Assembly (NCBI GenBank): GCA_964016885.1
Contig: OZ024742.1
Location: 62,001-126,000 of the forward strand
Origin: Eledone cirrhosa
Taxonomy: Eukaryota
Direction of reading: 5' to 3'
Length of the DNA: 64,000 nucleotides
A model generated the notes under the pieces. That model made no database searches, was not told the DNA's origin, and worked only from the letters and a program-made list of their open reading frames with translations. A program made the position numbers and the translations under genes. The first letter of the stretch is position 1, and each line of letters begins with the position of its first letter. Shown here one piece after another: positions 8,386 to 64,000 of this stretch.

Positions 8386-8399
8386 AAGAAAGAGGTAGA

Positions 8400-9131: not shown

Positions 9132-9145
9132 CCATCAGTCGAGAC

Positions 9146-9233: not shown

Positions 9234-9277
<44 letters not shown>

Positions 9278-9350
9278 AAGAAAACAACAACAACAACAAC
9301 AGCAGCAGCAGCAGCAGCAGCAAAAACAACAACAGCCAAAACCACCACCA
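9146..9350. repeat. Serial trinucleotide microsatellites (GAA)n-(CAA)n-(CAG)n-(CAA)n-(CCA)n
   Basis: Direct reading. Confidence 0.95.
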
Positions 9351-9599
9351 CTTTTGTATGTTCATAGATCTCTGAAGATCAGTCGGCCCTCAACGTACAT
9401 TCAACAGTAACCACAACTAACCCTAACCCTAACCCTCAACGTACATTCAACACTAACCACCCTAACCCTAACCCTCACTCTAAACCTAACGCTCAACATA
9501 CATTCAACAGTAAGCAGCCTAACCCTAACCCTAACCCTCAACGTACATTCAACAGTAACCACTCTAACCCTAAGCCTAACTCTAAACCTAACGCTCAAC

Positions 9600-12500
9600 G
9601 TACATTCAACAGTAACCACTCTAACCCTAACCCTAACCCTAACTTAACCCTATCACTCAACGTACATTCAACAGTAACCACCCTAACCCTTAGCCTAACC
9701 CAAACCCTCAACGTACATTCAACAGTAACCACCCTAACCCTAACCCTAACCTTAACCCTCAACGTAGATTCAACAGTAACCATTCTAACCCTAACCCTAA
9801 CCCTAACCCTTACCCTCAACGTACATTCAACAGTAACCACAATAACCCTAACCTTAACCCTCAACGTACATTCAACAGTACCCACCCTAACCCTAACCCT
9901 CAACGTACATTCAACATTAACCACTCTAACCCTAACCCTAACACTAACCCTCAACGTACATTCAACAGTAACCACCCTAACCCTAACCCTAACCCTAACC
10001 CTCAACGTACATTCAACAGTAACCACCCTAACCCTAACCCTAACCCTCAACGTACATTCAACAGTAACCATCCTAACACTAACAATAACCCTAAACGTAC
10101 ATGCAACAGTAACCGCCATAACCCTAACCCTAACCCTAACCTAACCCTAACCCTCAACGTACATTCAACAGTAACCACTCTAACCCTAACCCTAACCCTC
10201 AACGTACATTCAAAAGTAACCACAATAACCTTAACCCTCAACGTACATTCAACAGTAACCCCCACATCCTAACCCTAACCCACAACGTACATTCAACAGT
10301 AACCATTCTAACCCTAACCCTAACCCTCAACGTACATTCAACAGTAACCATTCTAACCCTAACCCTAACCCTCAACGTACATTCAACAGTAACCATTCTA
10401 ACCCTAACCCTAACCCTCAACGTACATTCAACAGTAACCATTCTAAACCTAACCCTAACCCTCAACGTACATTCAACAGTAACCACTCTAACCCTAACCC
10501 TAACCCTCAACGTACATTCAACAGTAACCATTCTAACCTAACCCTAACCCTCAACGTACATTCAACAGTAACCACCCTAACCCTATCCCTAACCCTCAAC
10601 GTACATTCAACAGTAACCACCCTAACCCTAACCCTAACCCTCAACGTACATTCAACAGTAACCACCATAACCCTAACCCTCAACGTACATTCAACAGTAA
10701 CCCCCTCATCCTAACCCTAACACTCAACGTACATTCAACTGTAACCATTCTAACCCTCACCCTAACCCTCAACGTACATTCAACAGTAACCAATCTAACC
10801 CTAACCCTAACCCTCAACGTACATTCAACAGTAACCACTCTAACCCTAACCCTAACCCTAACCCTAACTTAACCCTATCACTCAACGTACATTCAACAGT
10901 AACCACCCTAACCCTTAGCCTAACCCAAACCCTCAACGTACATTCAACAGTAACCACCCTAACCCTAACCCTAACCCTAACCCTCAACGTACATTCAACA
11001 GTAACCACAATAACCCTAACCTTAACCCTCAACGTACATTCAACAGTACCCACCCTAACCCTAACCCTCAACGTACATTCAACATTAACCACTCTAACCC
11101 TAACCCTAACACTAACCCTCAACGTACATTCAACAGTAACCACCCTAACCCTAACCCTAACCCTCAACGTACATTCAACAGTAACCACCCTAACCCTAAC
11201 CCTAACCCTCAACGTACATTCAACAGTAACCATCCTAACACTAACAATAACCCTAAACGTACATGCAACAGTAACCACCATAACCCTAACCCTAACCCTA
11301 ACCTAACCCTAACCCTCAACGTACATTCAACAGTAACCACTCTAACCCTAACCCTAACCCTCAACGTACATTCAACAGTAACCAACATAACCTTAACCCT
11401 CAACGTACATTCAACAGTAACCCCCTCATCCTAACCCTAACCCACAACGTACATTCAACAGTAACCATTCTAACCTAACCCTAACCCTCAACGTACATTC
11501 AACAGTAACCACTCTAACCCTAACCCTAACCCTCAACGTACATTCAACAGTAACCAACATAACCTTAACCCTCAACGTACATTCAACAGTAACCCCCTCA
11601 TCCTAACCCTAACCCTCAACGTACATTCAAGAGTAACCATTCTAACCCTAACCCTAACCCTCAACGTACATTCAACAGTAACCATTCTAACCCTAACCCT
11701 AACCCTCAACGTACATTCAACAGTAACCATTCTAACCCTAACCCTAACCCTCAACGTACATTCAACAGTAACCACTCTAACCCTAACCCTAACCCTCAAC
11801 GTACATTCAACAGTAACCACCCTAACCCTAACCCTAACCCTCAACGTACATTCAACAGTAACCACCCTAACCCTAACCCTAACCCTCAACGTACATTCAA
11901 CAGTAACCACCATAACCCTAACCCTCAACGTACATTCAACAGTAACCCCCTCATCCTAACCCTAACACTCAACGTACATTCAACTGTAACCATTCTAACC
12001 CTCACCCTAACCCTCAACGTACATTCAACAGTAACCAATCTAACCCTAACCCTAACCCTCAACGTACATTCAACAGTAACCACCCTAACACTAACTCTAA
12101 CCCTCAACGTACATTCAACAGTAACCACTCTAACCCTAACCCTAACCCTCAACGTACATTCAAAAGTAACCACCCTAACCCTAACCCTCAACGTACATTC
12201 AACAGTAACCACTCTAACCCTAACCCTAATCCTAACCCTCAACGTACATTCAACAGTAACCACCCTAACCCTAACCCTCAACGTACATTCAACAGTAACC
12301 ACCCTAACCCTAACCCTAACCCTCGACGTACATTCAACAGTAACCACCATAACCCTAACCCTCAACGTACATTCAACAGTAACCCCCTCATCCTAACCCT
12401 AACCCTCAACGTACATTCAACAGTAACCATTCTAACCCTAAGCCTAACCCTCAACGTACATTCAACAGTAACCACTCTAACCCTAACCCTAACCCTCAAC

Positions 12501-15500
12501 GTACATTCAACAGTAACCACCCTAACCCTAACCCTAACCCTAACCCTCAACGTACATTCAACAGTAACCACCCTAACCCTAACCCTAACCCTCAACGTAC
12601 ATTCAACAGTAACCACCATAACCCTAACCCTCAACGTACATTCAACAGTAACCCCCTCATCCTAACCCTAACACTCAACGTACATTCAACTGTAACCATT
12701 CTAACCCTCACCCTAACCCTCAACGTACATTCAACAGTAACCAATCTAACCCTAACCCTAACCCTCAACGTACATTCAACAGTAACCACTCTAACCCTAA
12801 CCCTAACCCTAACTTAACCCTATCACTCAACGTACATTCAACAGTAACCACCCTAACCCTTAGCCTAACCCAAACCCTCAACGTACATTCAACAGTAACC
12901 ACCCTAACCCTAGCCCTAACCTTAACCCTCAACGTACATTCAACAGTAACCATTCTAACCCTAACCCTAACCCTAACCCTAACCCTCAACGTACATTCAA
13001 CAGTAACCACAATAACCCTAACCTTAACCCTCAACGTACATTCAACAGTACCCACCCTAACCCTAACCCTCAACGTACATTCAACATTAACCACTCTAAC
13101 ACTAACCCTAACACTAACCCTCAACGTACATTCAACAGTAACCACCCTAACCCTAACCCTAACCCTCAACGTACATTCAACAGTAACCATCCTAACACTA
13201 ACAATAACCCTAAACGTACATGCAACAGTAACCACCATAACCCTAACCCTAACCCTAACCTAACCCTAACCCTCAACGTACATTCAACAGTAACCACTCT
13301 AACCCTAACCCTAACCCTCAAGGTACATTCAACAGTAACCACCATAACCTTAACACTCAACGTACATTCAACAGTAACCCCCTCATCCTAACCCTAACCC
13401 ACAACGTACATTCAACAGTAACCATTCCAACCCTAACCCTAACCCTCAACGTACATTCAACAGTAACCATTCTAACCCTAACCCTAACCCTCAACGTACA
13501 TTCAACAGTAACCATTCTAAGCCTAACCCTAACCCTCAACGTACTTTCAACAGTAACCATTCTAAGCCTAACCCTAACCCTCATCGTACGTTCAACAGTA
13601 ACCACTCTAACCCTAACCCTAACCCTCAACGTACATTCAACAGTAACCACCCTAACCCTAACCCTCAACGTACATTCAACAGTAACCCCCTCATCCTAAC
13701 CCTAACACTCAACGTACATTCAACTGTAACCATTCTAACCCTCACCCTAACCCTCAACGTACATTCAACAGTAACCAATCTAACCCTAACCCTAACCCTC
13801 AACGTACATTCAACAGTAACCACCCTAACACAAACTCTAACCCTCAACGTACATTCGACAGTAACCACTCTAACCCTAACCCTAACCCTCATCGTACATT
13901 CAACAGTAACCACTCTAACCCTAACCCTAACCCTCAACGTACATTCAACAGTAACCACCCTAACCCTAACCCTAACCCTCAACGTACATTCAACAGTAAC
14001 CACCATAACCCTAACCCTCAACGTACATTCAACAGTAACCCCCTCATCCTAACCCTAACACTCAACGTACATTCAACTGTAACCATTCTAACCCTCACCC
14101 TAACCCTCAACGTACATTCAACAGTAACCAATCTAACCCTAACCCTAACCCTCAACGTACATTCAACAGTAACCACCCTAACACTAACTCTAACCCTCAA
14201 CGTACATTCAACAGTAACCACCCTAACCCTAACCCTAACCCTAACCCTCAACGTACATTCAACAGTAACCACCCTAACCCTAACCCTAACCCTCAACGTA
14301 CATTCAACAGTAACCATCCTAACACTAACAATAACCCTAAACGTACATGCAACGGTAACCGCCATAACCCTAACCCTAACCCTAACCTAACCCTAACCCT
14401 CAACGTACATTCAACAGTAACCACTCTAACCCTAACCCTAACCCTCAACGTACATTCAACAGTAACCACAATAACCTTAACCCTCAACGTACATTCAACA
14501 GTAACCCCCACATCCTAACCCTAACCCACAACGTACATTCAACAGTAACCATTCTAACCCTAACCCTAACCCTCAACGTACATTCAACAGTAACCATTCT
14601 AACCCTAACCCTAACCCTCAACGTACATTCAACAGTAACCATTCTAACCCTAACCCTAACCCTCAACGTACATTCAACAGTAACCACCCTAACCCTATCC
14701 CTAACCCTCAACGTACATTCAACAGTAACCACCCTAACCCTAACCCTAACCCTCAACGTACATTCAACAGTAACCACCATAACCCTAACCCTCAACGTAC
14801 ATTCAACAGTAACCCCCTCATCCTAACCCTAACACTCAACGTACATTCAACTGTAACCATTCTAACCCTCACCCTAACCCTCAACGTACATTCAACAGTA
14901 ACCAATCTAACCCTAACCCTAACCCTCAACGTACATTCAACAGTAACCACTCTAACCCTAACCCTAACCCTAACCCTAACTTAACCCTATCACTCAACGT
15001 ACATTCAACAGTAACCACCCTAACCCTTAGCCTAACCCAAACCCTCAACGTACATTCAACAGTAACCACCCTAACCCTAACCCTAACCTTAACCCTCAAC
15101 GTACATTCAACAGTAACCATTCTAACCCTAACACTAACCCTCAACGTACATTCAACAGTAACCACTCTAACCCTAACCCTAACCCTCAACGTACATTCAA
15201 CAGTAACCACCCTAACCCTATCCCTAACCCTCAACGTACATTCAACAGTAACCACCCTAACCCTAACCCTAACCCTCAACGTACATTCAACAGTAACCAC
15301 CATAACCCTAACCCTCAACGTACATTCAACAGTAACCCCCTCATCCTAACCCTAACACTCAACGTACATTCAACTGTAACCATTCTAACCCTCACCCTAA
15401 CCCTCAACGTACATTCAACAGTAACCAATCTAACCCTAACCCTAACCCTCAACGTACATTCAACAGTAACCACTCTAACCCTAACCGTAACCCTAACCCT

Positions 15501-18500
15501 AACTTAACCCTATCACTCAACGTACATTCAACAGTAACCACCCTAACCCTTAGCCTAACCCAAACCCTCAACGTACATTCAACAGTAACCACCCTAACCC
15601 TAACCCTAACCCTAACCCTCAACGTACATTCAACAGTAACCACAATAACCCTAACCTTAACCCTCAACGTACATTCAACAGTACCCACCCTAACCCTAAC
15701 CCTCAACGTACATTCAACATTAACCACTCTAACCCTAACCCTAACACTAACCCTCAACGTACATTCAACAGTAACCACCCTAACCCTAACCCTAACCCTC
15801 AACGTACATTCAACAGTAACCACCCTAACCCTAACCCTAACCCTCAACGTACATTCAACAGTAACCATCCTAACACTAACAATAACCCTAAACGTACATG
15901 CAACAGTAACCACCATAACCCTAACCCTAACCCTAACCTAACCCTAACCCTCAACGTACATTCAACAGTAACCACTCTAACCCTAACCCTAACCCTCAAC
16001 GTACATTCAACAGTAACCAACATAACCTTAACCCTCAACGTACATTCAACAGTAACCCCCTCATCCTAACCCTAACCCACAACGTACATTCAACAGTAAC
16101 CATTCTAACCTAACCCTAACCCTCAACGTACATTCAACAGTAACCACTCTAACCCTAACCCTAACCCTCAACGTACATTCAACAGTAACCAACATAACCT
16201 TAACCCTCAACGTACATTCAACAGTAACCCCCTCATCCTAACCCTAACCCTCAACGTACATTCAAGAGTAACCATTCTAACCCTAACCCTAACCCTCAAC
16301 GTACATTCAACAGTAACCATTCTAACCCTAACCCTAACCCTCAACGTACATTCAACAGTAACCATTCTAACCCTAACCCTAACCCTCAACGTACATTCAA
16401 CAGTAACCACTCTAACCCTAACCCTAACCCTCAACGTACATTCAACAGTAACCACCCTAACCCTAACCCTAACCCTCAACGTACATTCAACAGTAACCAC
16501 CCTAACCCTAACCCTAACCCTCAACGTACATTCAACAGTAACCACCATAACCCTAACCCTCAACGTACATTCAACAGTAACCCCCTCATCCTAACCCTAA
16601 CACTCAACGTACATTTAACTGTAACCATTCTAACCCTCACCCTAACCCTCAACGTACATTCAACAGTAACCAATCTAACCCTAACCCTAACCCTCAACGT
16701 ACATTCAACAGTAACCACCCTAACACTAACTCTAACCCTCAACGTACATTCAACAGTAACCACTCTAACCCTAACCCTAACCCTCAACGTACATTCAACA
16801 GTAACCACTCTAACCCTAACCCTAACCCTCAACGTACATTCAAAAGTAACCACCCTAACCCTAACCCTCAACGTACATTCAACAGTAACCACTCTAACCC
16901 TAACCCTAATCCTAACCCTCAACGTACATTCAACAGTAACCACCCTAACCCTAACCCTCAACGTACATTCAACAGTAACCACCCTAACCCTAACCCTAAC
17001 CCTCGACGTACATTCAACAGTAACCACCATAACCCTAACCCTCAACGTACATTCAACAGTAACCCCCTCATCCTAACCCTAACCCTCAACGTACATTCAA
17101 CAGTAACCATTCTAACCCTAAGCCTAACCCTCAACGTACATTCAACAGTAACCACTCTAACCCTAACCCTAACCCTCAACGTACATTCAACAGTAACCAC
17201 CCTAACCCTAACCCTAACCCTCAACGTACATTCAACAGTAACCACCCTAACCCTAACCCTAACCCTCAACGTACATTCAACAGTAACCACCATAACCCTA
17301 ACCCTCAACGTACATTCAACAGTAACCCCCTCATCCTAACCCTAACACTCAACGTACATTCAACTGTAACCATTCTAACCCTCACCCTAACCCTCAACGT
17401 ACATTCAACAGTAACCAATCTAACCCTAACCCTAACCCTCAACGTACATTCAACAGTAACCACTCTAACCCTAACCCTAACCCTAACTTAACCCTATCAC
17501 TCAACGTACATTCAACAGTAACCACCCTAACCCTTAGCCTAACCCAAACCCTCAACGTACATTCAACAGTAACCACACTAACCCTAGCCCTAACCTTAAC
17601 CCTCAACGTACATTCAACAGTAACCATTCTAACCCTAACCCTAACCCTAACCCTAACCCTCAAAGTACATTCAACAGTAACCACAATAACCCTAACCTTA
17701 ACCCTCAACGTACATTCAACAGTACCCACCCTAACCCTAACCCTCAACGTACATTCAACATTAACCACTCTAACACTAACCCTAACACTAACCCTCAACG
17801 TACATTCAACAGTAACCACCCTAACCCTAACCCTAACCCTCAACGTACATTCAACAGTAACCATCCTAACACTAACAATAACCCTAAACGTACATGCAAC
17901 AGTAACCACCATAACCCTAACCCTAACCCTAACCTAACCCTAACCCTCAACGTACATTCAACAGTAACCACTCTAACCCTAACCCTAACCCTCAAGGTAC
18001 ATTCAACAGTAACCACCATAACCTTAACACTCAACGTACATTCAACAGTAACCCCCTCATCCTAACCCTAACCCACAACGTACATTCAACAGTAACCATT
18101 CTAACCCTAACCCTAACCCTCAACGTACATTCAACAGTAACCATTCTAACCCTAACCCTAACCCTCAACGTACTTTCAACAGTAACCATTCTAAGCCTAA
18201 CCCTAACCCTCATCGTACATTCAACAGTAACCACTCTAACCCTAACCCTAACCCTCAACGTACATTCAACAGTAACCACCCTAACCCTAACCCTCAACGT
18301 ACATTCAACAGTAACCCCCTCATCCTAACCCTAACACTCAACGTACATTCAACTGTAACCATTCTAACCCTCACCCTAACCCTCAACGTACATTCAACAG
18401 TAACCAATCTAACCCTAACCCTAACCCTCAACGTACATTCAACAGTAACCACCCTAACACTAACTCTAACCCTCAACGTACATTCAACAGTAACCACTCT

Positions 18501-21500
18501 AACCCTAATCCTAACCCTCAACGTACATTCAACAGTAACCACTCTAACCCTAACCCTAACCCTCAACGTACATTCAAAAGTAACCACCCTAACCCTAACC
18601 CTCAACGTACATTCAACAGTAACCACTCTAACCCTAACCCTAATCCTAACCCTCAACGTACATTCAACAGTAACCACCCTAACCCTAACCCTAACCCTCA
18701 ACGTACATTCAACAGTAACCACCATAACCCTAACCCTCAACGTACATTCAACAGTAACCACCCTAACCCTAACCCTAACCCTAACCCTCAACGTAAATTC
18801 AACAGTAACCACAATAACCCTAACCTTAACCCTCAACGTACATTCAACAGTACCCACCCTAACCCTAACCCTCAACGTACATTCAACATTAACCACTCTA
18901 ACCCTAACCCTAACACTAACCCTCAACGTACATTCAACAGTAACCACCCTAACCCTAACCCTAACCCTCAACGTACATTCAACAGTAACCACCCTAACCC
19001 TAACCCTAACCCTCAACGTACATTCAACAGTAACCATCCTAACACTAACAATAACCCTAAACGTACATGCAACAGTAACCACCATAACCCTAACCCTAAC
19101 CCTAACCTAACCCTAACCCTCAACGTACATTCAACAGTAACCACTCTAACCCTAACCCTAACCCTCAACGTACATTCAACAGTAACCAACATAACCTTAA
19201 CCCTCAACGTACATTCAACAGTAACCCCCTCATCCTAACCCTAACCCACAACGTACATTCAACAGTAACCATTCTAACCTAACCCTAACCCTCAACGTAC
19301 ATTCAACAGTAACCACTCTAACCCTAACCCTAACCCTCAACGTACATTCAACAGTAACCATTCTAACCCTAACCCTAACCCTCAACGTACATTCAACAGT
19401 AACCACTCTAACCCTAACCCTAACCCTCAACGTACATTCAACAGTAACCAACATAACCTTAACCCTCAACGTACATTCAACAGTAACCCCCTCATCCTAA
19501 CCCTAACCCTCAACGTACATTCAAGAGTAACCATTCTAACCCTAACCCTAACCCTCAACGTACATTCAACAGTAACCATTCTAACCCTAACCCTAACCCT
19601 CAACGTACATTCAACAGTAACCATTCTAACCCTAACCCTAACCCTCAACGTACATTCAACAGTAACCACTCTAACCCTAACCCTAACCCTCAACGTACAT
19701 TCAACAGTAACCACCCTAACCCTAACCCTAACCCTCAACGTACATTCAACAGTAACCACCCTAACCCTAACCCTAACCCTCAACGTACATTCAACAGTAA
19801 CCACCATAACCCTAACCCTCAACGTACATTCAACAGTAACCCCCTCATCCTAACCCTAACACTCAACGTACATTCAACTGTAACCATTCTAACCCTCACC
19901 CTAACCCTCAACGTACATTCAACAGTAACCAATCTAACCCTAACCCTAACCCTCAACGTACATTCAACAGTAACCACCCTAACACTAACTCTAACCCTCA
20001 ACGTACATTCAACAGTAACCACTCTAACCCTAACCCTAACCCTCAACGTACATTCAACAGTAACCACTCTAACCCTAACCCTAACCCTCAACGTACATTC
20101 AAAAGTAACCACCCTAACCCTAACCCTCAACGTACATTCAACAGTAACCACTCTAACCCTAACCCTAATCCTAACCCTCAACGTACATTCAACAGTAACC
20201 ACCCTAACCCTAACCCTCAACGTACATTCAACAGTAACCACCCTAACCCTAACCCTAACCCTCGACGTACATTCAACAGTAACCACCATAACCCTAACCC
20301 TCAACGTACATTCAACAGTAACCCCCTCATCCTAACCCTAACCCTCAACGTACATTCAACAGTAACCATTCTAACCCTAAGCCTAACCCTCAACGTACAT
20401 TCAACAGTAACCACTCTAACCCTAACCCTAACCCTCAACGTACATTCAACAGTAACCACCCTAACCCTAACCCTAACCCTCAACGTACATTCAACAGTAA
20501 CCACCCTAACCCTAACCCTAACCCTCAACGTACATTCAACAGTAACCACCATAACCCTAACCCTCAACGTACATTCAACAGTAACCCCCTCATCCTAACC
20601 CTAACACTCAACGTACATTCAACTGTAACCATTCTAACCCTCACCCTAACCCTCAACGTACATTCAACAGTAACCAATCTAACCCTAACCCTAACCCTCA
20701 ACGTACATTCAACAGTAACCACTCTAACCCTAACCCTAACCCTAACTTAACCCTATCACTCAACGTACATTCAACAGTAACCACCCTAACCCTTAGCCTA
20801 ACCCAAACCCTCAACGTACATTCAACAGTAACCACCCTAACCCTAGCCCTAACCTTAACCCTCAACGTACATTCAACAGTAACCATTCTAACCCTAACCC
20901 TAACCCTAACCCTAACCCTCAACGTACATTCAACAGTAACCACAATAACCCTAACCTTAACCCTCAACGTACATTCAACAGTACCCACCCTAACCCTAAC
21001 CCTCAACGTACATTCAACATTAACCACTCTAACACTAACCCTAACACTAACCCTCAACGTACATTCAACAGTAACCACCCTAACCCTAACCCTAACCCTC
21101 AACGTACATTCAACAGTAACCATCCTAACACTAACAATAACCCTAAACGTACATGCAACAGTAACCACCATAACCCTAACCCTAACCCTAACCTAACCCT
21201 AACCCTCAACGTACATTCAACAGTAACCACTCTAACCCTAACCCTAACCCTCAAGGTACATTCAACAGTAACCACCATAACCTTAACACTCAACGTACAT
21301 TCAACAGTAACCCCCTCATCCTAACCCTAACCCACAACGTACATTCAACAGTAACCATTCTAACCCTAACCCTAACCCTCAACGTACATTCAACAGTAAC
21401 CACCCTAACCCTAACCCTAACCCTCAACGTACATTCAACAGTAACCACCCTAACCCTAACCCGAACCCTCAACGTACATTCAACAGTAACCACCATAACC

Positions 21501-48500: not shown

Positions 48501-49900
48501 ATTCAACAGTAACCCCCTCATCCTAACCCTAACACTCAACGTACATTCAACTGTAACCATTCTAACCCTCACCCTAACCCTCAACGTACATTCAACAGTA
48601 ACCAATCTAACCCTAACCCTAATCCTCAACGTACATTCAACAGTAACCACCCTAACACTAACTCTAACCCTCAACGTACATTCAACAGTAACCACTCTAA
48701 CCCTAACCCTAACTCTCAACGTACATTCAACAGTAACCACTCTAACTCTAACCCTAACCCTCAACGTACATTCAAAAGTAACCACCCTAACCCTCAACGT
48801 ACATTCAACAGTAACCACTCTAACCCTAACCCTAATCCTAACCCTCAACGTACATTCAACAGTAACCACCCTAACTCTAACCCTCAACGTACATTCAACA
48901 GTAACCACCCTAACCCTAAACCTAACCCTCAACGTATATTCAACAGATACCACCATAACCCTAACCCTCAACGTACATTCAACAGTAACCCCCTCATCCT
49001 AACCCTAACACTCAACGTACATTCAACTGTAACCATTCTAACCCTCACCCTAACCCTCAACGTACATTCAACAGTAACCACTCTAACCCTAACCCTCAAC
49101 GTACATTCAACAGTAACCACTCTAACCCTAACCCTAACCCTCAACGTACATTCAACAGTAACCACTCTAAGCCTAACCCTAACCCTCAACGTACATTCAA
49201 CAGTAACCACCCTAACCCTAACCCTCCACGTACATTCAACAGTAACCACTCTAACCCTAACCCTAATCCTAACCCTCAACGTACATTCAACAGTAACCAC
49301 CCTAACCCTAACCCTCAACGTACATTCAACAGTAACCACCCTAACCCTAACCCTAACCCTCAACGTACATGCAACAGTAACCACCCTAACCCTAACCCTA
49401 ACCCTCAACGTACATTCAACAGTAACCACTCAAACCCTAACCCTAAACTTAACCCTCAACGTACATTCAACTGTAACCATTCTAACCCTAACCCTAACCC
49501 TCAACGTATATGCAACAGTAACCACAATAACCCTAACCTTAACCCTCAACGTACATTCAACAGTAACCACCCTAACCCTAACCCTAACCCTAACCCTAAC
49601 CCTCAACGTACATTCAACAATAACCACAATAACCCTAACCCTAACCCTCAACGTACATTCAACATTAACCACTCTAACCCTAACCCTAACACGAACCCTC
49701 AACGTACATTCAACAGTAACCACTCTAACCCTAACCCTCAACGTACATTCAACAGTAACCACTCTAATTTAACACTAACCCTCAACGTACATTCAACAGT
49801 AACCACCATAACCCTAACCCTCAACGTACATTCAACAGTAACCCCCTCATCCTAACCCTAACCCACAACGTACATTCAACAGTAACCACCTTAACCCAAA
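9600..49900. repeat. Satellite domain 1: higher-order repeat (HOR) region with diagnostic variant monomers
   Basis: Marker AACAATAACCCTAAACGTACATGCAAC recurs 23 times (~10.1 to ~47.9 kb) at 1.1-2.7 kb spacing; the 44-bp CCCCCTCATCC monomer is confined to this region. Confidence 0.9.
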
Positions 49901-50039
49901 CCCTAACCCTAACCCTAAGCCTCAACGTACATTCAACAGTAACCATTCGAGCCCTAACCCTAACCCTGAACGTACATTCAACAGTAACCACTCAAACCCT
50001 AACCCTAACCCTAACACTCAACGTACATTAAAAAGTAAC

Positions 50040-53000
50040 CACCCTAACCCTAACCCTAACCCTAACCCTAACCCTAACCCTAACCCTCAACGTATATTCA
50101 ACAGTAACCACTCTAACCCTAACCCTAACCCTCAACGTACATTCAACTGTAACCATTCTAACCCTAAACCTAACCTTAACACTCAACGTACATTCAACTG
50201 TAACCATTCTAACCCTCACCCTAACCCTCAACGTACATTCAACAGTAACCTCCCTAACCCTAACCCTAACCCTCAACGTACTTTCAACAGTAACCACCCT
50301 AACCCTAACCCTAACCCTCAACGTACATTCAACAGTAACCACTCTAACCCTAACTCTAACCCTCAACGTACATTCAACAGTAACCACCCTAACCCTAACC
50401 CTAACCCTAACCCTCAACGTACATTCAACAGTACCCACCCTAACCCTAACCCTCAACGTACATTCAACAGTAACCACTTTAACCCTAACTCTAACCCTCA
50501 ACGTACATTCAACAGTAACCACCCTAACCCTAACCCTAACCCTCAACGTACATTCAACAGTACCCACCCTAACCCTAACCCTCAACGTACATTCAACAGT
50601 AACCACTTTAACCCTAACTCTAACCCTCAAAGTACATTCAACAGTAACCACCCTAACCCTTACCCTAACCCTCAACGTACATTCAACAGTAACCACTCTA
50701 ACCCTAACTCTAACCCTCAACGTACATTCAACAGTAACCACCCTAACCCTAACCCTAACCCTCAACGTACATTCAACAGTAACCACCCTAACCCTAACCC
50801 TAACCCTCAACGTACATTCAACAGTAACCACCCTAACCCTAACCCTCAACGTACATTCAACAGTAACCACTCTAACCCTAACCCTAATCCTAACCCTCAA
50901 CGTACATTCAACAGTAACCACCCTAACCCTCAACGTACATTCAACAGTAACCACTCTAACCCTAACCCAAACCCTAAACCTCAACGTACATTCAACAGTA
51001 ACCACTCTAACCCTAACCCTCAACGTACATTCAACAGTAACCACCCTAACCCTAACCCTCAACGTACATTCAACAGTAACCACACTAACCCTAACCCTAA
51101 TCCTAACCCTCAACGTACATTCAACAGTAACCACCCTAACCCTCAACGTACATTCAACAGTAACCACCCTAACCCTAATCCTAACCCTCAACGTACATTC
51201 AACAGTAACCACCCTAACCCTAACCCTAACCCTCAACGTACATTCAACAGTAACTACCCTAACCCTAACCCTAACCCTCAACGTACATTCAACAGTAACC
51301 ACTCTAACCCTAACCCTAACCCTCAACGTACATTCAACAGTAACCACCCTAACCCTAACTCTAACCCTCAACGTACATTCAACAGTAACCACCCTAACCC
51401 TAACCCTAACCTTCAACGTACATTCAACAGTAACCACCCTAACCCTAACCCTCAACGTACATTCAACAGTAACCACCCTAACCCTAACCCTAACCCTCAA
51501 CGTACATTCAACAGTAACCACCATAACCCTAACCCTAACCCTAACCCTAACCCTCAACGTACATTCAACAGTAACTACTCTAACCCTAACCCTAACCCTC
51601 AACGTACATTCAAAAGTAACAACCCTAACCCTAACCCTAACCCTAACCCTCAACGTACATTCAACAGTAACCACTCTAACCCTAACCCTAACCCTCAACG
51701 TACATTCAACAGTAACCACCCTAACCCTAACCCTCAACGTACATTCAACAGTAACCACCCTAACCCTAACCCTAACCCACAACGTACATTCAACAGTAAC
51801 CACCCTAACCCTAACCCTAACCCTCAACGTACATTCAACAGTAACCACCCTAACCCTAACCCTCAACGTACATTCGACAGTAACCACTCTAACCCTAACC
51901 CTAACCCTAACCCTCAACGTACATTCAACAGTAACCACTCAAACCCTAACCTTAATCCTGTACGTACATTCAAAAGTAACCACTCTAACCCTAACCCTAA
52001 CCCTCAACGTACATTCAACAGTAACCACCCTAACCCTAACCCTAACCCTCAACGTACATTCAACAGTAACCACTCTAACCCTAACCCTAACCCTCAACGT
52101 ACATTCAACAGTAACCACCCTAACCCTAACGCTCAACGTACATTCAACAGTAACCACTCTAACCCTAACCCTAACCCTAACCCTCAACGTACATTCAACA
52201 GTAACCACTCTAACCCTAACCCTAACCCTCAATGTACATTCAACAGTAACCACCCTAACCCTCAACGTACATTCAACAGTAACCACTCTAACCCTAACCC
52301 TAACCCTCAATGTACATTCAACAGTAACCACCCTAACCCTCAACGTACATTCAACAGTAACCACTCTAACCCTAACCCTAACCCTCAACGTACATTCAAC
52401 AGTAACCACACTAACCCTAACCCTCAACGTACATTCAACAGTAACCACTCTAACCCTAACCCTAATCCTAACCCTCAACGTACATTCAACAGTAATCACC
52501 CTAACCCTAATCCTAACCCTCAACGTACATTCAACAGTAACCACCCTAACCCTTACCCCCAACCCTCAACGTACATACAACAGTAACCACTCTAACCCTA
52601 ACCCTAACCCTCAACGTACATTCAACAGTAACCACCCTAACCCTAACCCTAACCCTCAACGTACATTCAACTGTAACCACTCTAACCCTAACCCTAACAC
52701 TCAACGTACATTCAACAGTAACCACCCTAACCCTAACCCTCAACGTACATTCAACAGTAACCACCCTAACCCTAACCCTAACCCTCAACGTACATTCAAC
52801 TGTAACCACACTAACCCTAACCCTAACACTCAACGTACATTCAACAGTAACCACCCTAACCCTCACCCTCAACGTACATACAACAGTAACCACTCTAACC
52901 CTAACCCTAACCCTCAACGTACATTCAACAGTAACCACCCTAACCCTAACCCTAACCCTCAACGTACATTCAACTGTAACCACTCTAACCCTAACCCTAA

Positions 53001-56000
53001 CACTCAACGTACATTCAACAGTAACCACCCTAACCCTAACACTCAACGTACATTCAACAGTAACCACCCTAACCCTAACCCTAACCCTCAACGTACATTC
53101 AACAGTAACCACCCTAACCCTAACCCTAACCCTCAACGTACATTCAACAGTAACCACTCTAACCCTAACTCTAACCCTCAACGTACATTCAACAGTAACC
53201 ACCCTAACCCTAACCCTAACCCTAACCCTCAACGTACATTCAACAGTACCCACCCTAACCCTAACCCTCAACGTACATTCAACAGTAACCACTTTAACCC
53301 TAACTCTAACCCTCAACGTACATTCAACAGTAACCACCCTAACCCTAACCCTAACCCTCAACGTACATTCAACAGTACCCACCCTAACCCTAACCCTCAA
53401 CGTACATTCAACAGTAACCACTTTAACCCTAACTCTAACCCTCAACGTACATTCAACAGTAACCACCCTAACCCTTACCCTAACCCTCAACGTACATTCA
53501 ACAGTAACCACTCTAACCCTAACTCTAACCCTCAACGTACATTCAACAGTAACCACCCTAACCCTAACCCTAACCCTCAACGTACATTCAACAGTAACCA
53601 CCCTAACCCTAACCCTAACCCTCAACGTACATTCAACAGTAACCACCCTAACCCTAACCCTCAACGTACATTCAACAGTAACCACTCTAACCCTAACCCT
53701 AATCCTAACCCTCAACGTACATTCAACAGTAACCACCCTAACCCTCAACGTACATTCAACAGTAACCACTCTAACCCTAACCCAAACCCTAAACCTCAAC
53801 GTACATTCAACAGTAACCACTCTAACCCTAACCCTCAACGTACATTCAACAGTAACCACCCTAACCCTAACCCTCAACGTACATTCAACAGTAACCACAC
53901 TAACCCTAACCCTAATCCTAACCCTCAACGTACATTCAACAGTAACCACCCTAACCCTCAACGTACATTCAACAGTAACCACCCTAACCCTAATCCTAAC
54001 CCTCAACGTACATTCAACAGTAACCACCCTAACCCTAACCCTAACCCTCAACGTACATTCAACAGTAACCACCCTAACCCTAACCCTAACCCTCAACGTA
54101 CATTCAACAGTAACCACTCTAACCCTAACCCTAACCCTCAACGTACATTCAACAGTAACCACCCTAACCCTAACTCTAACCCTCAACGTACATTCAACAG
54201 TAACCACCCTAACCCTAACCCTAACCTTCAACGTACATTCAACAGTAACCACCCTAACCCTAACCCTCAACGTACATTCAACAGTAACCACTCTAACCCT
54301 AACCCTAACCCCCAACGTACATTCAACAGTAACCACCCTAACCCTAACCCTAACCCTCAACGTACATTCAACAGTAACCACCATAACCCTAACCCTAACC
54401 CTAACCCTAACCCTCAACGTACATTCAACAGTAACTACTCTAACCCTAACCCTAACCCTCAACGTACATTCAAAAGTAACAACCCTAACCCTAACCCTAA
54501 CCCTAACCCTCAACGTACATTCAACAGTAACCACTCTAACCCTAACCCTAACCCTCAACGTACATTCAACAGTAACCACCCTAACCCTAACCCTCAACGT
54601 ACATTCAACAGTAACCACCCTAACCCTAACCCTAACCCACAACGTACATTCAACAGTAACCACCCTAACCCTAACCCTAACTCTCAACGTACATTCAACA
54701 GTAACCACCCTAACCCTAACCCTCAACGTACATTCAACAGTAACCACTCTAACCCTAACCCTAACCCTAACCCTCAACGTACATTCAACAGTAACCACTC
54801 AAACCCTAACCCTAACCCTCAATGTACATTCAACAGTAACCACCCTAACCCTCAACGTACATTCAACAGTAACCACTCTAACCCTAACCCTAACCCTCAA
54901 TGTACATTCAACAGTAACCACCCTAACCCTCAACGTACATTCAACAGTAACCACTCTAACCCTAACCCTAACCCTCAACGTACATTCAACAGTAACCACC
55001 CTAACCCTCAACGTACATTCAACAGTAACCACACTAACCCTAACCCTCAACGTACATTCAACAGTAACCACTCTAACCCTAACCCTAATCCTAACCCTCA
55101 ACGTACATTCAACAGTAATCACCCTAACCCTAATCCTAACCCTCAACGTACATTCAACAGTAACCACCCTAACCCTTACCCCCAACCCTCAACGTACATA
55201 CAACAGTAACCACTCTAACCCTAACCCTAACCCTCAACGTACATTCAACAGTAACCACCCTAACCCTAACCCTAACCCTCAACGTACATTCAACTGTAAC
55301 CACTCTAACCCTAACCCTAACACTCAACGTACATTCAACAGTAACCACCCTAACCCTAACCCTCAACGTACATTCAACAGTAACCACCCTAACCCTAACC
55401 CTAACCCTCAACGTACATTCAACTGTAACCACACTAACCCTAACCCTAACACTCAACGTACATTCAACAGTAACCACCCTAACCCTCACCCTCAACGTAC
55501 ATTCAACAGTAACCACCCTAACCCTAACCCTAACTCTCAACGTACATTCAAATGTAACCACACTAACCCTAACCCTAACACTCAACGTACATTCAACAGT
55601 AACCACCCTAACCCTAACCCTAACCCTCAACGTACATTCAACAGTAACCATCGTAACCCTAACCCTAACCCTCAACGTACATTCAACAGTAACCACCCTA
55701 ACCCTAACCCTAACCCTCAACGTACATTCAACAGTAACCACCCAAACCCTAACCCTAACCCTCAACGTACATTCAACTGTAACCACACTAACCCTAACCC
55801 TAACCCTCAACGTACATTCAACAGTAACCACTTTAACCCTAACTCTAACCCTCAACGTACATTCAACAGTAACCACCCTAACCCTTACCCTAACCCTCAA
55901 CGTACATTCAACAGTAACCACTCTAACCCTAACTATAACCCTCAACGTACATTCAACAGTAACCACCCTAACCCTAACCCTAACCCTCAACGTACATTCA

Positions 56001-59000
56001 ACAGTAACCACCCTAACCCTAACCCTCAACGTACATTCAACAGTAACCACCCTAACCCTAACCCTAACCCACAACGTACATTCAACAGTAACAACCCTAA
56101 CCCTAACCTTAACCCTCAACGTACATTCAACAGTAACCACTCTAACCCTAACCCTAACCCTTAACGTACATTCAACAGTAACCACCCTAACCCTCAACGT
56201 ACATTCAACAGTAACCACTCTAACCCTAACCCAAACCCTAAACCTCAACGTACATTCAACAGTAACCACTCTAACACTAACCCTAACCCTCAACGTACAT
56301 TCAACAGTAACCACCCTAACCCTAACCCTCAACGTACATTCAACAGTAACCACACTAACCCTAAACCTAATCCTAACCCTCAACGTACATTCAACAGTAA
56401 CCACCCTAACCCTCAACGTACATTCAACAGTAACCACCCTAACCCTAACCCTCAACGTACATTCAACAGTAACCACTCTAACCCTAACCCTAATCCTAAC
56501 CCTCAACGTACATTCAACAGTAATCACCCTAACCCTAATCCTAACCCTCAACGTACATTCAACAGTAACCACCCTAACCCTTACCCCCAACCCTCAACGT
56601 ACATACAACAGTAACCACTCTAACCCTAACCCTAACCCTCAACGTACATTCAACAGTAACCACCCTAACCCTAACCCTAACCCTCAACGTACATTCAACT
56701 GTAACCACTCTAACCCTAACCCTAACACTCAACGTACATTCAACAGTAACCACCCTAACCCTAACCCTAACCCTAACCCTAACCCTCAACGTACATTCAA
56801 CAGTAACCACCCTAACCCTCACCCTCAACGTACATTCAACAGTAACCACTCTAACCCTAACCCTAACCCTCAACGTACATTCAACTGTAACCACACTAAC
56901 CCTAACCCTAACACTCAACGTACATTCAACAGTAACCACCCTAACCCTAACCCTAACCCTCAACGAACATTCAATAATAACCACCCTAACCCTAACCCTA
57001 ACCCTCAACGTACATTCAACAGTAACCACCCTAACCCTAACCCTAACACTCAACGTACATTCAACAGTAACCACCCTAACCCTAACCCTCAACGTACATT
57101 CAACTGTAACCACACTAACCCTAACCCTAACACTCAACGTACATTCAACATTAACCACCCTAACCCTAACCCTAACCCTCAACGTACATTCAAAAGTAAC
57201 CACCCTAACCCTAATCCTAACCCTCAACGTACATTCAACAGTAACCACCCTAACCCTAACCCTAACCCTCAACGTACATTCAACAGTAACCACCCTAACC
57301 CTAACCCTAACCCTCAACGTACATTCAACAGTAACCACCCTAACCCTAACCCTCAACGTACATTCAACAGTAACCACTCTAACCCTAACCCTAACCCCCA
57401 ACGTACCTTCAACAATAACCACCCTAACTCTAACCCTCAACGTACATTCAACAGTAACCACTCTAACCCTAACCCTAACCCCTAACGTACCTTCAACAAT
57501 AACCACCCTAACCCTAACCCTCAACGTACATTCAACAGTAACCACCCTAACCCTAACCCTAACCCTAACCCTAACCCTCAACGTATATTCAACAGTAACT
57601 ACTCTAACCCTAACCCTAACCCTCAACGTACATTCAACTGTAACCATTCTAACCCTAACCCTAACCCTCAACGTACATTCAAAAGTAACAACCCTAACCC
57701 TAACCCTAACCCTAACCCTCAACGTACATTCAACAGTAACCACCCTAACCCTAACCCTCAACGTACATTCAACAGTAACCACCCTAACCCTAACCCTAAC
57801 CCACAACGTACATTCAACAGTAACCACCCTAACCCTAACCCTAACCCTCAACGTACATTCAACAGTAACCACTCTAACCCTAACCCTAACCCTCAACGTA
57901 CATTCAACAGTAACCACTCAAACCCTAACCCTCAACGTACATTCAACAGTAACCACCCTAACCCTAACCCTCAACGTACATTCAACAGTAACCACTCTAA
58001 CCCTAACCCTAACCCTAACCCTCAACGTACATTCAACATTAACCACTCTAACCCTAACCCTAACCCTCAACGTACATTCAACAGTAACCACCCTAACCCT
58101 CAACGTACATTCAACAGTAACCAATCTAACCCTAACCCTAATCCTAACCCTCAACGTACATTCAACAGTAACCACCCTAACCCTAACCCTCAACGTACAT
58201 TCAACAGTAACCACTCTAACCCTAACCCTAATCCTAACCCTCAACGTACATTCAACAGTAATCACCCTAACCCTAATCCTAACCCTCAACGTACATTCAA
58301 CAGTAACCACCCTAACCCTTACCCGCAACCCTCAACGTACATACAACAGTAACCACTCTAACCCTAACCCTAACCCTCAACGTACATTCAACAGTAACCA
58401 CCCTAACCCTAACCCTAACCCTCAACGTACATTCAACTGTAACCACTCTAACCCTAACCCTAACACTCAACGTACATTCAACAGTAACCACCCTAACCCT
58501 CACCCTCAACGTACATTCAACAGTAACCACCCTAACCCTAACCCTGACCCTCAACGTACATTCAACTGTAACCACACTAACCCTAACCCTAACACTCAAC
58601 GTACATTCAACAGTAACCACCCTAACCCTAACCCTAACCCTCAACGTACATTCAACAGTAACCACCCTAACCCTAACCCTAACCCTCAACGTACATTCAA
58701 CAGTAACCACCCTAACCCTAACCCTAACCCTCAACGTACATTCAACTGTAACCACACTAACCCTAACCCTAACACTCAACGTACATTCAACAGTAACCAC
58801 CCTAACCCTAACCCTAACCCTCAACGTACATTCAACAGTAACCACCCTAACCCTAATCCTAACCTTCAACGTACATTCAACAGTAACCACCCTAACCCTA
58901 ACCCTAAACCTCAACGTACATTCAACAGTAACCACCCTAAACCTAACCCTAACCCTCAACGTACATTCAACAGTAACCACCCTAACCCTAACCCTAACCC

Positions 59001-62000
59001 TCAACGTACATTCAACAGTAACCACTCTAACCCTAACCCTAACCCTCAACGTACATTCAACAGTAACCACCCTAACCCTAACCCTAACCCTCAACGTACA
59101 TTCAACAGTAACCACCCTAACCCTAACCCTACCCCTCAACGTACATTCAACAGTAACCACCCTAACCCTAACCCTCAACGTACATTCAACAGTAACCACC
59201 CTAACCCTAACCCTAACCCTCAACGTACATTCAACAGTAACCACCCTAACCCTAACCCTAACCCTCAACGTACATTCAACAGTAACCACCCTAACCCTAA
59301 CCCTAACCCTAACCCTCAACGTACATTCAACAGTAACCACCCTAACCCTAACCCTAACCCTCAACGTACATTCAACAGTAACCACTCTAACCCTAACCCT
59401 AACCCTCAACGTACATTCAACAGTAACCACCCTAACCCTAACCCTCAACGTACATTCAACAGTAACCACTCTAACCCTAACCCTAACCCTCAACGTACAT
59501 TCAACAGTAACCACCCTAACCCTAACCCTTAACGTACATTCAACAGTAACCACCCTATCCCTAACCCTAACCCTCAACGTACATTCAACAGTAACCACCC
59601 TAACCCTTACCCGCAACCCTCAACGTACATACAACAGTAACCACTCTAACCCTAACCCTAACCCTCAACGTACATTCAACAGTAACCACCCTAACCCTAA
59701 CCCTAACCCTCAACGTACATTCAACTGTAACCACTCTAACCCTAACCCTAATACTCAACGTACATTCAACAGTAACCACCCTAACCCTCACCCTCAACGT
59801 ACATTCAACAGTAACCACCCTAACCCTAACCCTGACCCTCAACGTACATTCAACTGTAACCACACTAACCCTAACCCTAACACTCAACGTACATTCAACA
59901 GTAACCACCCTAACCCTAACCCTAACCCTCAACGTACATTCAACAGTAACCACCCTAACCCTAACCCTAACCCTCAACGTACATTCAACAGTAACCACCC
60001 TAACCCTAACCCTAACCCTCAACGTACATTCAACTGTAACCACACTAACCCTAACCCTAACACTCAACGTACATTCAACAGTAACCACCCTAACCCTAAC
60101 CCTAACCCTCAACGTACATTCAACAGTAACCACCCTAACCCTAATCCTAACCCTCAACGTACATTCAACAGTAACCACCCTAACCCTAACCCTAAACCTC
60201 AACGTACATTCAACAGTAACCACCCTAAACCTAACCCTAACCCTCAACGTACATTCAACAGTAACCACCCTAACCCTAACCCTAACCCTCAACGTACATT
60301 CAACAGTAACCACTCTAACCCTAACCCTAACCCTCAACGTACATTCAACAGTAACCACCCTAACCCTAACCCTAACCCTCAACGTACATTCAACAGTAAC
60401 CACCCTAACCCTAACCCTACCCCTCAACGTACATTCAACAGTAACCACCCTAACCCTAACCCTCAACGTACATTCAACAGTAACCACCCTAACCCTAACC
60501 CTAACCCTCAACGTACATTCAACAGTAACCACCCTAACCCTAACCCTAACCCTCAACGTACATTCAACAGTAACCACCCTAACCCTAACCCTAACCCTAA
60601 CCCTCAACGTACATTCAACAGTAACCACCCTAACCCTAACCCTAACCCTCAACGTACATTCAACAGTAACCACTCTAACCCTAACCCTAACCCTCAACGT
60701 ACATTCAACAGTAACCACCCTAACCCTAACCCTCAACGTACATTCAACAGTAACCACTCTAACCCTAACCCTAACCCTCAACGTACATTCAACAGTAACC
60801 ACCCTAACCCTAACCCTTAACGTACATTCAACAGTAACCACCCTAACCCTAACCCTAACCCTCAACGTACATTCAACAGTAACCACTCTAACCCTAACCC
60901 TAACCCTCAACGTACATTCAACAGTAACCACCCTAACCCTAACCCTCAACGTACATTCAACAGTAACCACCCTAACACTAACCCTCAACGTACATTCAAC
61001 AGTAACCACCCTAACCCTAACCCTCAACGTACATTCAACAGTAACCACTCTAACCCTAACCCTAACCCTCAACGTACATTCAACAGTAACCACCCTAACC
61101 CTAACCCTCAACGTACATTCAACAGTAACCACTCTAACCCTAACCCTAACCCTCAACGTACATTCAACAGTAACCACCCTAACCCTAACCCTAACCCCCA
61201 ACGTACATTCAACAGTAACCACTCTAACCCTAACCCTAACCCTCAACGTACATTCAACAGTAACCACCCTAACCCTAACCCTCAACGTACATTCAACAGT
61301 AACCACCCTAACCCTAACCCTAACCCTCAACGTACATTCAACAGTAACCACCCTAACCCTAACCCTAACCCTCAACGTACATTCAACTGTAACCATTCTA
61401 ACCCTAACCCTCAACGTACATTCAACAGTAACCACTCTAACCCTAACCCTAACCCTCAACGTACATTCAACAGTAACCACCCTAACCCTAACCCTCAACG
61501 TACATTCAACAGTAACCACCCTAACCCTAACCCTAACCCTCAACGTACATTCAACAGTAACCACTCTAACCCTAACCCTAACCCTCAACGTACATTCAAC
61601 AGTAACCACCCTAACCCTAACCCTTAACGTACATTCAACAGTAACCACCCTAACCCTAACCCTAACCCTCAACGTACATTCAACAGTAACCACTCTAACC
61701 CTAACCCTAACCCTCAACGTACATTTAACAGTAACCACCCTAACCCTAACCCTCAACGTACATTCAACAGTAACCACCCTAACCCTAACCCTAACCCTCA
61801 ACGTACATTCAACAGTAACCACCCTAACCCTATCCCTAACCCTCAACGTACATTCAACAGTAACCACCCTAACCCTAACCCTCAACGTACATTCAACAGT
61901 AACCACCCTAACCCTAACCCTCAACGTACATTCAACAGTAACCACCCTAACCCTAACCCTAACCCTCAACGTACACTCAACAGTAACCACCCTAACCCTA

Positions 62001-64000
62001 ACCCTCAACGTACATTCAACAGTAACCACCCTAACCCTAACCCTCAACGTACATTCAACAGTAACAACCCTAACCCTAACCCTAACCGTCAACGTACATT
62101 CAACAGTAACCACCCTAACCCTAACCCTAACTCTAACCCTAACCACCCTAACCCTAACCCTCAACGTACATTCAACAGTAACCACCCTAACCCTAACCCT
62201 AACCCTCAACGTACATTCAACAGTAACCACCCTAACCCTAACCCTAACCCTCAACGTACATTCAACAGTAACCACGCTAATCCTAACCCTAACCCTCAAC
62301 GTACATTCAACAGTAACCACCCTAACCCTAACCCTAACCCTCAACGTACATTCAACAGTAACCACCCTAACCCTAACCCTCAACGTACATTCAACAGTAA
62401 CCACCCTAACCCTAACCCTAACCCTCAACGTACATTCAACAGTAACCACTCTAACCCTAACCCTAACCCTCAACGTACATTCAACAGTAACCACCCTAAC
62501 CCTAACCCTAACCCTCAACGTACATTCAACAGTAACCACTCTAACCCTAACCCTAACCCTCAACGTACATTCAACAGTAACCACCCTAACCCTAACCCTC
62601 AACGTACATTCAACAGTAACCACCCTAACCCTAACCCTAACCCTCAACGTACATTCAACAGTAACCACCCTAACCCGAACCCTAACCCTCAACGTACATT
62701 CAACTGTAACCATTCTAACCCTAACCCTCAACGTACATTCAACAGTAACCACTCTAACCCTAACCCTAACCCTCAACGTACATTCAACAGTAACCACCCT
62801 AACCCTAACCCTCAACGTACATTCAACAGTAACCACCCTAACCCTAACCCTAACCCTCAACGTACATTCAACAGTAACCACTCTAACCCTAACCCTAACC
62901 CTCAACGTACATTCAACAGTAACCACCCTAACCCTAACCCTCAACGTACATTCAACAGTAACCACCCTAACCCTAACCCTAACCCTCAACGTACATTCAA
63001 CAGTAACCACTCTAACCCTAACCCTAACCCTCAACGTACATTCAACAGTAACCACCCTAACCCTAACCCTCAACGTACATTCAACAGTAACCACCCTAAC
63101 CATAACCCTAACCCTCAACGTACATTCAACAGTAACCACCCTAACCCTAACCCTAACCCTCAACGTACATTCAACAGTAACCACCCTAACCCTAACCCTC
63201 AAAGTACATTCAACAGTAACCACCCTAACCCTAACCCTAACCCTCAACGTACATTCAACAGTAACCACCCTAACCCTAACCCTCAACGTACATTCAACAG
63301 TAACCACCCAAACCCTAACCCTAACCCTCAACGTACATTCAACAGTAACCACCCTAACCCTAACCCTAACCCTCAACGTACATTCAACAGTAACCACCCT
63401 AACCCTAACCCTAACCCTCAACGTACATTCAACAGTAACCACTCTAACCCTAACCCTAACCCTCAACGTACATTCAACAGTAACCACCCTAACCCTAACC
63501 CTCAACGTACATTCAACAGTAACCACCCTAACCCTAACCCTAACCCTCAACGTACATTCAACAGTAACCACCCTAACCCTAACCCTAACCCTCAACGTAC
63601 ATTCAACAGTAACCACTCTAACCCTAACCCTAACCCTCAACGTACATTCAACAGTAACCACCCTAACCCTAACCCTCAACGTACATTCAACAGTAACCAC
63701 TCTAACCCTAACCCTAACCCTCAACGTACATTCAACAGTAACCACCCTAACCCTAACCCTAACCCTCAACGTACATTCAACAGTAACCACTCTAACCCTA
63801 ACCCTAACCCTCAACGTACATTCAACAGTAACCACCCTAACCCTAACCCTCAACGTACATTCAACAGTAACCACCCTAACCCTAACCCTAACCCTCAACG
63901 TACATCCAACAGTAACCACCATAACCCTAACCCTAACCCTCAACGTACATTCAACTGTAACCATTCTAACCCTAACCCTCAACGTACATTCAACAGTAAC
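50040..64000. repeat. Satellite domain 2: simpler, increasingly homogeneous 39/45-bp monomers with its own variants
   Basis: Lacks domain-1 markers; CTTACCC(C/G)CAACCCTCAACGTACATACAAC marker at ~52552, 55175, 56580, 58318, 59606. Confidence 0.88.

Follow-up and report, generated by a model that had tools for sequence, protein, structure and literature searches.

Telomeric repeats within chromosomes are known from several kinds of sequence. As described in the available text of PMC6410037 and PMC9498494, the large interstitial telomeric sequences (ITSs) of heterochromatic and subtelomeric DNA are internal, partly degenerate TTAGGG blocks in head-to-tail order, flanked by transposons and satellites and amplified by recombination; the routes of ITS amplification are unequal crossing-over, conversion, slippage and rolling circle (PMC6410037). 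In the PaB6 satellite of Prospero, so far as the available text goes, intact and imperfect TTAGGG motifs are integral to a 249-bp monomer with a length variant that arose through TTAGGG insertion, and this satellite lights up with a telomere probe and is pericentromeric on several to all chromosomes, in 10^4-10^6 copies (PMC4273535). Short ITSs place a few hexamers beside a short foreign insert, either TERC-derived or random filler (in the horse, such filler accompanies the hexamers at 12 of the 66 ITS loci), and are described in the available part of the source as isolated insertions that were not amplified and whose empty site is known (PMC7215372). Finally, some subtelomeric satellites are species- or chromosome-specific, lie near a chromosome end and contain short internal telomeric tracts (available text of PMC5615363).

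In this study, we describe a 74-kb array in Eledone cirrhosa that has features of each of these systems. A satellite with interspersed telomeric tracts is also said to exist in Sparidae. The array differs from large ITSs in that hexamers make up less than one-third of its bases and are locked into a monomer with a 24-nt spacer and higher-order repeats. Whereas PaB6 is long and abundant, the unit here is 39-51 bp, occurs at one locus in ~1,650 copies and is unrelated in sequence as far as PaB6 is described. Unlike the short ITSs, the locus yielded neither an empty site nor a donor, and in contrast to the chromosome-specific subtelomeric satellites it is placed relative to the scaffold start only, not to a true chromosome end. 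Literature searches that included the spacer sequence on both strands returned no description of the array repeat; they covered mainly open-access text without supplements, so a species repeat catalogue could still list it. The array is real and undescribed within that literature; most probably it is no more than an ordinary satellite, known in kind and restricted to one locus.

Structure and extent of the array

The window analysed here is a stretch of 64,000 nt, C3:62,001-126,000, where C3 is a 378.9-Mb scaffold (a giant chromosome) of the 3.0-Gb assembly. Read directly from the sequence, the array begins at window position 9387 and extends beyond position 64000, where the window stops. With the neighbouring sequence included, it spans C3:71,387-145,054 (73,668 bp, 1,649 spacers) and is bounded on both sides by non-array DNA. 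C3:1-256,000 is without any N, and the array is gap-free. The features in window coordinates are as follows.

9142..9334, no strand: (AAG)n/(AAC)n/(CAG)n microsatellite, immediately preceding the left junction
9335..9386, no strand: left junction, 52 bases of unique sequence, one 26-mer of which has a single occurrence in the assembly at <=3 mismatches
9387..64000, + strand: tandem array of spacer + (CCCTAA)n + CCC, continuing to C3:145,054
9387..50000, + strand: left domain, with an approximate right boundary; its monomers diverge from the canonical unit by 3.9-4.6%
50000..58500, + strand: middle domain (boundaries approximate), 2.8-3.2% divergence, with a ~2.8-kb duplication
58500..64000, + strand: first part of the right domain, whose units are close to canonical (1.1-1.4% divergence), continuing outside the window

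Each unit is composed of a 24-nt spacer, a run of (CCCTAA)n and a closing CCC, giving 24+6n+3 bp with n mostly 3 or 2, and all units lie on one strand, with the C-rich strand as plus. The preliminary description of this DNA had recognised the spacer and the CCCTAA run and omitted the trailing CCC. Its count of ~1,200 units in the window agrees with the 1,210 spacers found at <=4 mismatches (none of them before position 9380 in that scan). The spacer is near-invariant as had been claimed, though not invariant: 808 copies are exact, 354 have one mismatch and per-base divergence in the window is 1.6%. Likewise, the hexamers are present, but calling the array canonical overstates their purity, since the hexamer tract is 6.5% degenerate in the window (0.5-8% along the whole array) and the 3,399 perfect hexamers account for only 27.7% of the 73.7 kb, the spacer being the larger part. 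The array also contains 1,623 RsaI sites (GTAC).

The 6-bp steps in unit length described earlier are confirmed, 1,062 of 1,209 unit lengths in the window keeping this register. The modes in the window are 45 bp (679 units), 39 bp (227 units) and 51 bp (117 units), and the classes of 44 bp (99) and 62 bp (36) fall outside the register; over the whole array the counts are 977 at 45 bp, 362 at 39 bp, 118 at 51 bp and 99 at 44 bp, together with others. Among the 1,648 units of the whole array, 224 distinct types occur. Chance can be excluded as the source of the array because the reversed spacer pattern, used as a control, never matches exactly in the 3.0 Gb, whereas the real one does so 1,149 times. 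The tandem of telomeric hexamers and a ~24-nt spacer reported from 9387 to the window end is therefore real, and its reported extent of >54 kb holds within the window, with 19 kb more outside.

The spacer is confined to one locus

All 1,149 exact spacer matches in the assembly lie inside C3:71-145 kb. At <=3 mismatches, 1,646 of 1,647 matches are inside the array locus; the sole match elsewhere (C1:280.29 Mb, 3 mismatches) has no hexamers nearby and equals the control rate of 1. A 16-nt core of the spacer (1,374 of 1,374 matches) and the spacer 3′ half joined to a hexamer (1,447 of 1,447) are equally restricted. The spacer unit is a single-locus repeat in the assembly, and confinement to one locus, which the preliminary description had named as part of what would speak against its functional proposals, is what we find. 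An empty-site search with both array flanks found each flank once in the assembly and rebuilt no empty site.

This confinement speaks against the suggestion of a general (peri)centromeric satellite, a class present on most or all chromosomes. Very little probability attaches to a satellite specific to the centromere or pericentromere of C3. Such a role would accord with the satellite-dense neighbourhood and the higher-order structure, and telomeric repeats have been amplified within Solanum centromeres (available text of PMC5615363), yet the array is one 74-kb locus amid genes and transposons (LicD, TRIM2/3, Helitron and LINEs), and C3 carries a larger telomere-derived block (at least 175 kb, at 184.6-184.8 Mb) of a kind common to the other three giant chromosomes.

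Unrelated large arrays of 19-, 25-, 28-, 40-, 37- and 24-mers also lie near the array. The neighbouring 37-bp array is non-telomeric, 36.8 kb long and likewise single-locus (960 of 960 matches), so the size and uniqueness of the spacer array need no telomere-specific cause. The TRIM2/3 gene is an uninterrupted frame 78 kb to the right of the array, with 91% identity to a cluster in which the named members are Octopus, Argonauta and Sepia; identity to bivalve and gastropod sequences is 65-69%, which places the genome among the coleoid cephalopods.

A search for long hexamer runs brought out a second telomere-derived satellite family, in which TTAGGG runs are punctuated by TTAGCTG. Its internal blocks occur on all four giant chromosomes, each block being at least 35 kb long, with ~300 kb on C1, and the marker pattern used for it has 43 of 43 matches on these four chromosomes and none on any other contig. 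These blocks are candidate fusion or centromere sites, and the family suits the pericentromeric idea of the preliminary description better than the spacer array does.

Chromosome ends carry ordinary telomeres

Among the 26 scaffold ends examined (20 starts and 6 ends), seven carry pure hexamers, namely the starts of C7, C9, C10, C13 and C19, with terminal tracts of 4.6-17.9 kb, and the ends of C5 and C6. The other 19, including both ends of C3, terminate in satellites or other sequence, and the spacer is absent from all 26. Traced inward, five telomere tracts grade into TTGGGG-type variants at their inner edge and never into the spacer. Because the true ends are pure hexamers without spacer, the organism has ordinary TTAGGG telomeres and the array is interstitial in the assembly. 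The available text of PMC13218726 gives TTAGGG as the sole experimentally determined telomere motif of cephalopods.

The array lies 71 kb from the C3 scaffold start and is oriented like a left telomere; it is closed on both sides, within gap-free sequence, and does not form a physical chromosome end, nor does its repeat recur at the scaffold ends examined. The C3 scaffold itself begins within a 19-bp satellite, without a telomere, and its start need not be a real chromosome end. All units being on one strand, there is no head-to-head inversion of telomeric arrays of the kind that would mark a fusion. The TTAGGG telomeres that the preliminary description expected of a mollusc are thus present, its alternative telomere repeat is contradicted, and of its subtelomeric idea the position and orientation relative to the scaffold start stand, but not a role as telomere repeat.

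Higher-order repeats and growth of the array

Higher-order repeats and a divergence gradient are features of the array that had previously been overlooked. Higher-order repeats in the left domain comprise ~37-42 and 78-79 units (~3.5 kb), and two neighbouring copies, near 30,730 and 34,250, are identical but for a single mismatch over 3,477 aligned bases, as against 51 mismatches in the next pair of ~3.5-kb copies. In the right domain the higher-order repeat has 86 units (3,729 bp). Exact stretches common to higher-order copies reach 1,764 bp. Such near-identical repeats indicate growth by recombination or replication-based amplification rather than by telomerase, since a short RNA template could not yield kilobase duplications with inherited point variants.

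The same observation weighs on the reading of the array as a fossil or alternative telomere laid by telomerase, with the spacer copied by read-through of the telomerase RNA past its template, as in TERC-derived ITSs. The left-telomere orientation and the distance of 71 kb from the scaffold start would suit this origin, as would the TERC-derived inserts beside ITSs in mouse and horse (available text of PMC7215372). We nevertheless regard it as highly improbable: neither the spacer nor its 3′ half with hexamers has a second site in the assembly, the real ends are without spacer, and the more degenerate side of the array faces the scaffold start, the reverse of the true ends here.

Conservation and origin of the spacer

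When copies are averaged, the spacer of the left domain diverges by 1.7% and the tract by 7.5%. Most of the tract variation falls on its three leading bases (24% per site against 2% elsewhere, in 45-mers), and 842 of 1,648 units depart from the canonical first CCC. We infer that the high divergence of the first CCC and of the tract reflects the amplification of a few early variants. Private substitutions number 35 in the spacer and 43 in the tract, with 53.7% expected in the spacer (p=0.14), and when they are split by base type the two do not differ at C/G (p=0.17) or A/T (p=0.84) sites. C/G sites mutate faster than A/T sites overall (43 against 27, p=0.005), in both spacer and tract. The spacer therefore shows no excess conservation, private mutations striking spacer and hexamers alike once base type is allowed for, in a test that rests on 70-78 events, possibly including consensus errors, and that weak constraint would escape; the constraint implied by the preliminary description was not found. 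A mutation hotspot at the first CCC (the 3′ tract of a G-quadruplex, G4) was rejected, its event counts equalling those of other CCC tracts and its private events numbering 3 against 4.8 expected.

Several sources of the spacer were considered. Its edges are telomere-like and its 13-14-nt core is not. It is nearer to (CCCTAA)n than genomic 24-mers are (P=0.04), yet shuffled versions of it come as close (P=0.26; for the core, P=0.65-0.93), and decayed hexamers found no support in the latter comparison. Telomerase-RNA read-through and a transposon piece were set aside for want of a donor site in the assembly, in which the telomerase RNA gene may be diverged or unassembled. A snippet of the TTAGCTG family was rejected on a best match with 7 of 24 mismatches that 52 of 200 shuffles equalled. 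A TCAAC duplication inside the spacer is suggestive (best-split P=0.0125, post hoc). An Rfam search of window positions 1-12,000 gave 0 matches, and hairpin folding of three units gave no signal (z=+0.88) under a model that excludes G4. Filler inserted with hexamers at a break is a plausible seed of the monomer, by analogy with the horse loci, and decay of a variant tract is another plausible candidate.

The regular spacing raises the question of whether the array is a selected, phased dock for telomere-binding proteins or G-quadruplexes, with a fixed linker between motifs. The modal 45-mer carries exactly GGG(TTAGGG)3, presumably the minimal four-tract telomeric G4 or i-motif sequence, and this 21-nt motif is the commonest tract. 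The array also holds 2,540 copies of YTAGGGTTR, which we take to be the TRF1 half-site, equivalent to ~15 kb of pure telomere, and intact motifs are more frequent at the right end (88 of 149 units) than at the left (26 of 154). TRF1 and TRF2 bind subsets of mammalian ITSs (available text of PMC6410037). On the other hand, the intact motif is found in only 434 of 1,648 units, at a single locus, and in minimum spanning trees the CCC tracts collect 43-45 events per 1,000 against 19-20 for spacer and TAA sites, the opposite of protection. A selected dock is accordingly unlikely, although incidental binding of TRF by the array would be plausible by analogy with other ITSs. An exon-by-exon search of the genome for the TRF domain PF08558 gave no match, and its controls were blank too. 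Quite unlikely as well is a joint reading in which telomeric DNA has been recast into working punctuated satellites, so that the array would serve as an internal dock for shelterin, of telomere size and with one G4/TRF site per unit, while the TTAGGG/TTAGCTG family would mark centromeres or fusion seams of the four giants.

Support from sequencing reads

Run X1 is labelled as organism A, which may be the source sample. In its contigs, the spacer has a summed depth of 12,000-17,000 compared with 3.8 for one flank contig, which shows that the spacer is present in high copy, the depth itself not being a copy number. Runs labelled as organisms B and C each gave one 75-nt spacer-bearing contig at depth 8-9; the unit could be old, or these contigs could stem from a library remnant or contamination. 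Read contigs leave the junction flanks uncovered in five runs (X1, X4, X5, X6 and X21), and the absence of flanks in B and C is uninformative.

An assembly artefact, whether in the existence, the length or the placement of the array, seems extremely unlikely. Neither end of the C3 scaffold has a telomere, both breaking off in satellites, and at C2:823-832 kb a tract of pure telomere repeats next to a gap is wrongly oriented, indicating that end regions of the assembly can be mis-ordered; neither array junction is covered by read contigs. The array is nonetheless gap-free, its 224 unit types follow a consistent higher-order order, and in X1, which may be the source sample, short-read contigs give the spacer a depth thousands of times that of the flank contig, even if this depth is no copy number.

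Discussion

The locus is a single internal 74-kb array of spacer and hexamers. We consider it likely that slippage and unequal exchange built it up from one short seed of interstitial telomeric sequence, and that it is a passive satellite and not a telomere or centromere repeat. The seed would have combined a handful of hexamers with ~24 nt of filler or of decayed repeat, and may have come from telomeric repeats inserted at a repaired break or from a decaying subtelomeric variant tract. Misalignment inside the hexamer run would gain or lose whole hexamers and thereby account for the 6-bp steps, the spacer having no such internal register. Multi-unit duplications of 0.6-3.7 kb may then have expanded and homogenised the array in layers. 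The array is likely passive, and TRF-type proteins might bind it incidentally, as at other ITSs, without selection.

As in large ITSs, the block is internal, hexamer-rich and partly degenerate, with transposons and satellites as flanks; as in PaB6, hexamers are integral to a longer monomer and length variants differ by whole hexamers. We therefore assign the array, as a new sequence family, to a kind of repeat that is already known, either a large ITS or a PaB6-like satellite with telomere motifs.

The array is a fully assembled example of the layered growth of a telomere-containing satellite at one site, and it offers a C3-specific marker for FISH and length polymorphism. It also calls for caution, since TTAGGG probes and k-mer counts in this species report internal satellites as well. 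If binding of TRF or G4 were selected, the array would be a natural internal shelterin site, mappable because its spacer k-mers are unique, unlike those of pure telomeres. Furthermore, the TTAGGG/TTAGCTG blocks provide testable coordinates for fusions or centromeres in an unusual cephalopod karyotype.

Variation within the array and its spacer in other runs

The first CCC 3' of the spacer is changed in 842 of 1,648 units of the array, whereas in 45-bp units the remaining CCC tracts are changed at 4-13%, an excess for which a founder effect is our only proposed explanation. Among private changes in the array, C>A is the most frequent (23/70).

For window 9387-9485, sequencing runs X5 and X6, labelled as two other organisms, also yielded 75-nt contigs carrying the spacer together with hexamers, at a depth of 8-9 versus 12,000-17,000 for the spacer contigs of run X1. 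Those of X5 and X6 could represent either an ancestral low-copy unit or cross-contamination.

Neighbourhood of the array

The first part of the scaffold (C3:1-256,000) holds numerous unrelated arrays of minisatellite size, 1-37 kb long with units of 17-72 bp, and a 37-mer array among them is likewise confined to one locus. Genes and transposons occur around the array, in the window and in separate neighbouring stretches of C3 (L013, L016, L020 and L027).

Genes and transposons around the array
window 189-1178 (+): LicD-family (PF04991) ORF
L016:560-2008 (+): LicD-family (PF04991) ORF
window 1944-7038 (-); L020:1883-4596; L013:6469-8310; L027:7358-9385: Penelope-like fragments, Helitron, LINE reverse transcriptases, TRIM2/3 ORF

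The two LicD-family ORFs lie 11 kb apart, and one contains an internal 18-bp coding repeat. The Penelope-like fragments have a GIY-YIG match slightly below the cut-off, the Helitron lies 1.5-6.7 kb to the right of the array, and the TRIM2/3 ORF runs uninterrupted for 676 aa.

Chromosome ends and scaffold sizes

At the starts of C7, C9, C10, C13 and C19, true telomeres pass into TTGGGG blocks, and inward of these an AT-rich subtelomeric element, recognized by eye, is common to the C7, C9, C10 and C19 junctions. An almost pure 9.5-kb TTAGGG tract at C2:822,854-832,383 adjoins a 200-N gap in the wrong orientation and is likely a terminal contig that was misoriented in placement. Scaffold sizes indicate a bimodal karyotype, with four scaffolds of 379-443 Mb, three of 135, 103 and 94 Mb, and a large number between 37 and 61 Mb.

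Other satellites on the giant chromosomes

A second telomere-derived satellite, distinct from the window array, consists of degenerate TTAGGG runs in which TTAGCTG recurs at roughly 10-12 copies per kb as an interruption. All 43 matches to its 61-nt marker in the assembly fall on the giant chromosomes C1-C4.

TTAGCTG satellite blocks
C1:217,828,703-218,129,130: ~300 kb, both ends fixed, interior sampled
C2:~251.170-251.205 Mb: at least 35 kb, sampled
C3:~184.59-184.765 Mb: at least 175 kb, sampled
C4:~101.50-101.57 Mb: at least 70 kb, sampled

Each sampled stretch keeps a single orientation, and the C3 block includes a sub-domain rich in TTGGGG, the same variant as at the inner edge of the true telomeres. 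Adjoining the C1 block is an 11-bp satellite (GCTAAATCTAA), which among the matches listed (100 of 105) occupies several internal sites on the giant chromosomes and the far end of C7.

Sites of the 11-bp satellite among the matches listed
C1:208.8, 218.13, 279.4 Mb
C2:159.9, 254.3, 269.1 Mb
C3:205.4, 221.5 Mb
C4:339.5 Mb
C7:93.94 Mb (far end)

The sites of the 11-bp satellite may be centromeres or positions that were once chromosome ends, and the TTAGCTG blocks of C1-C4 are candidate fusion seams or centromeres.
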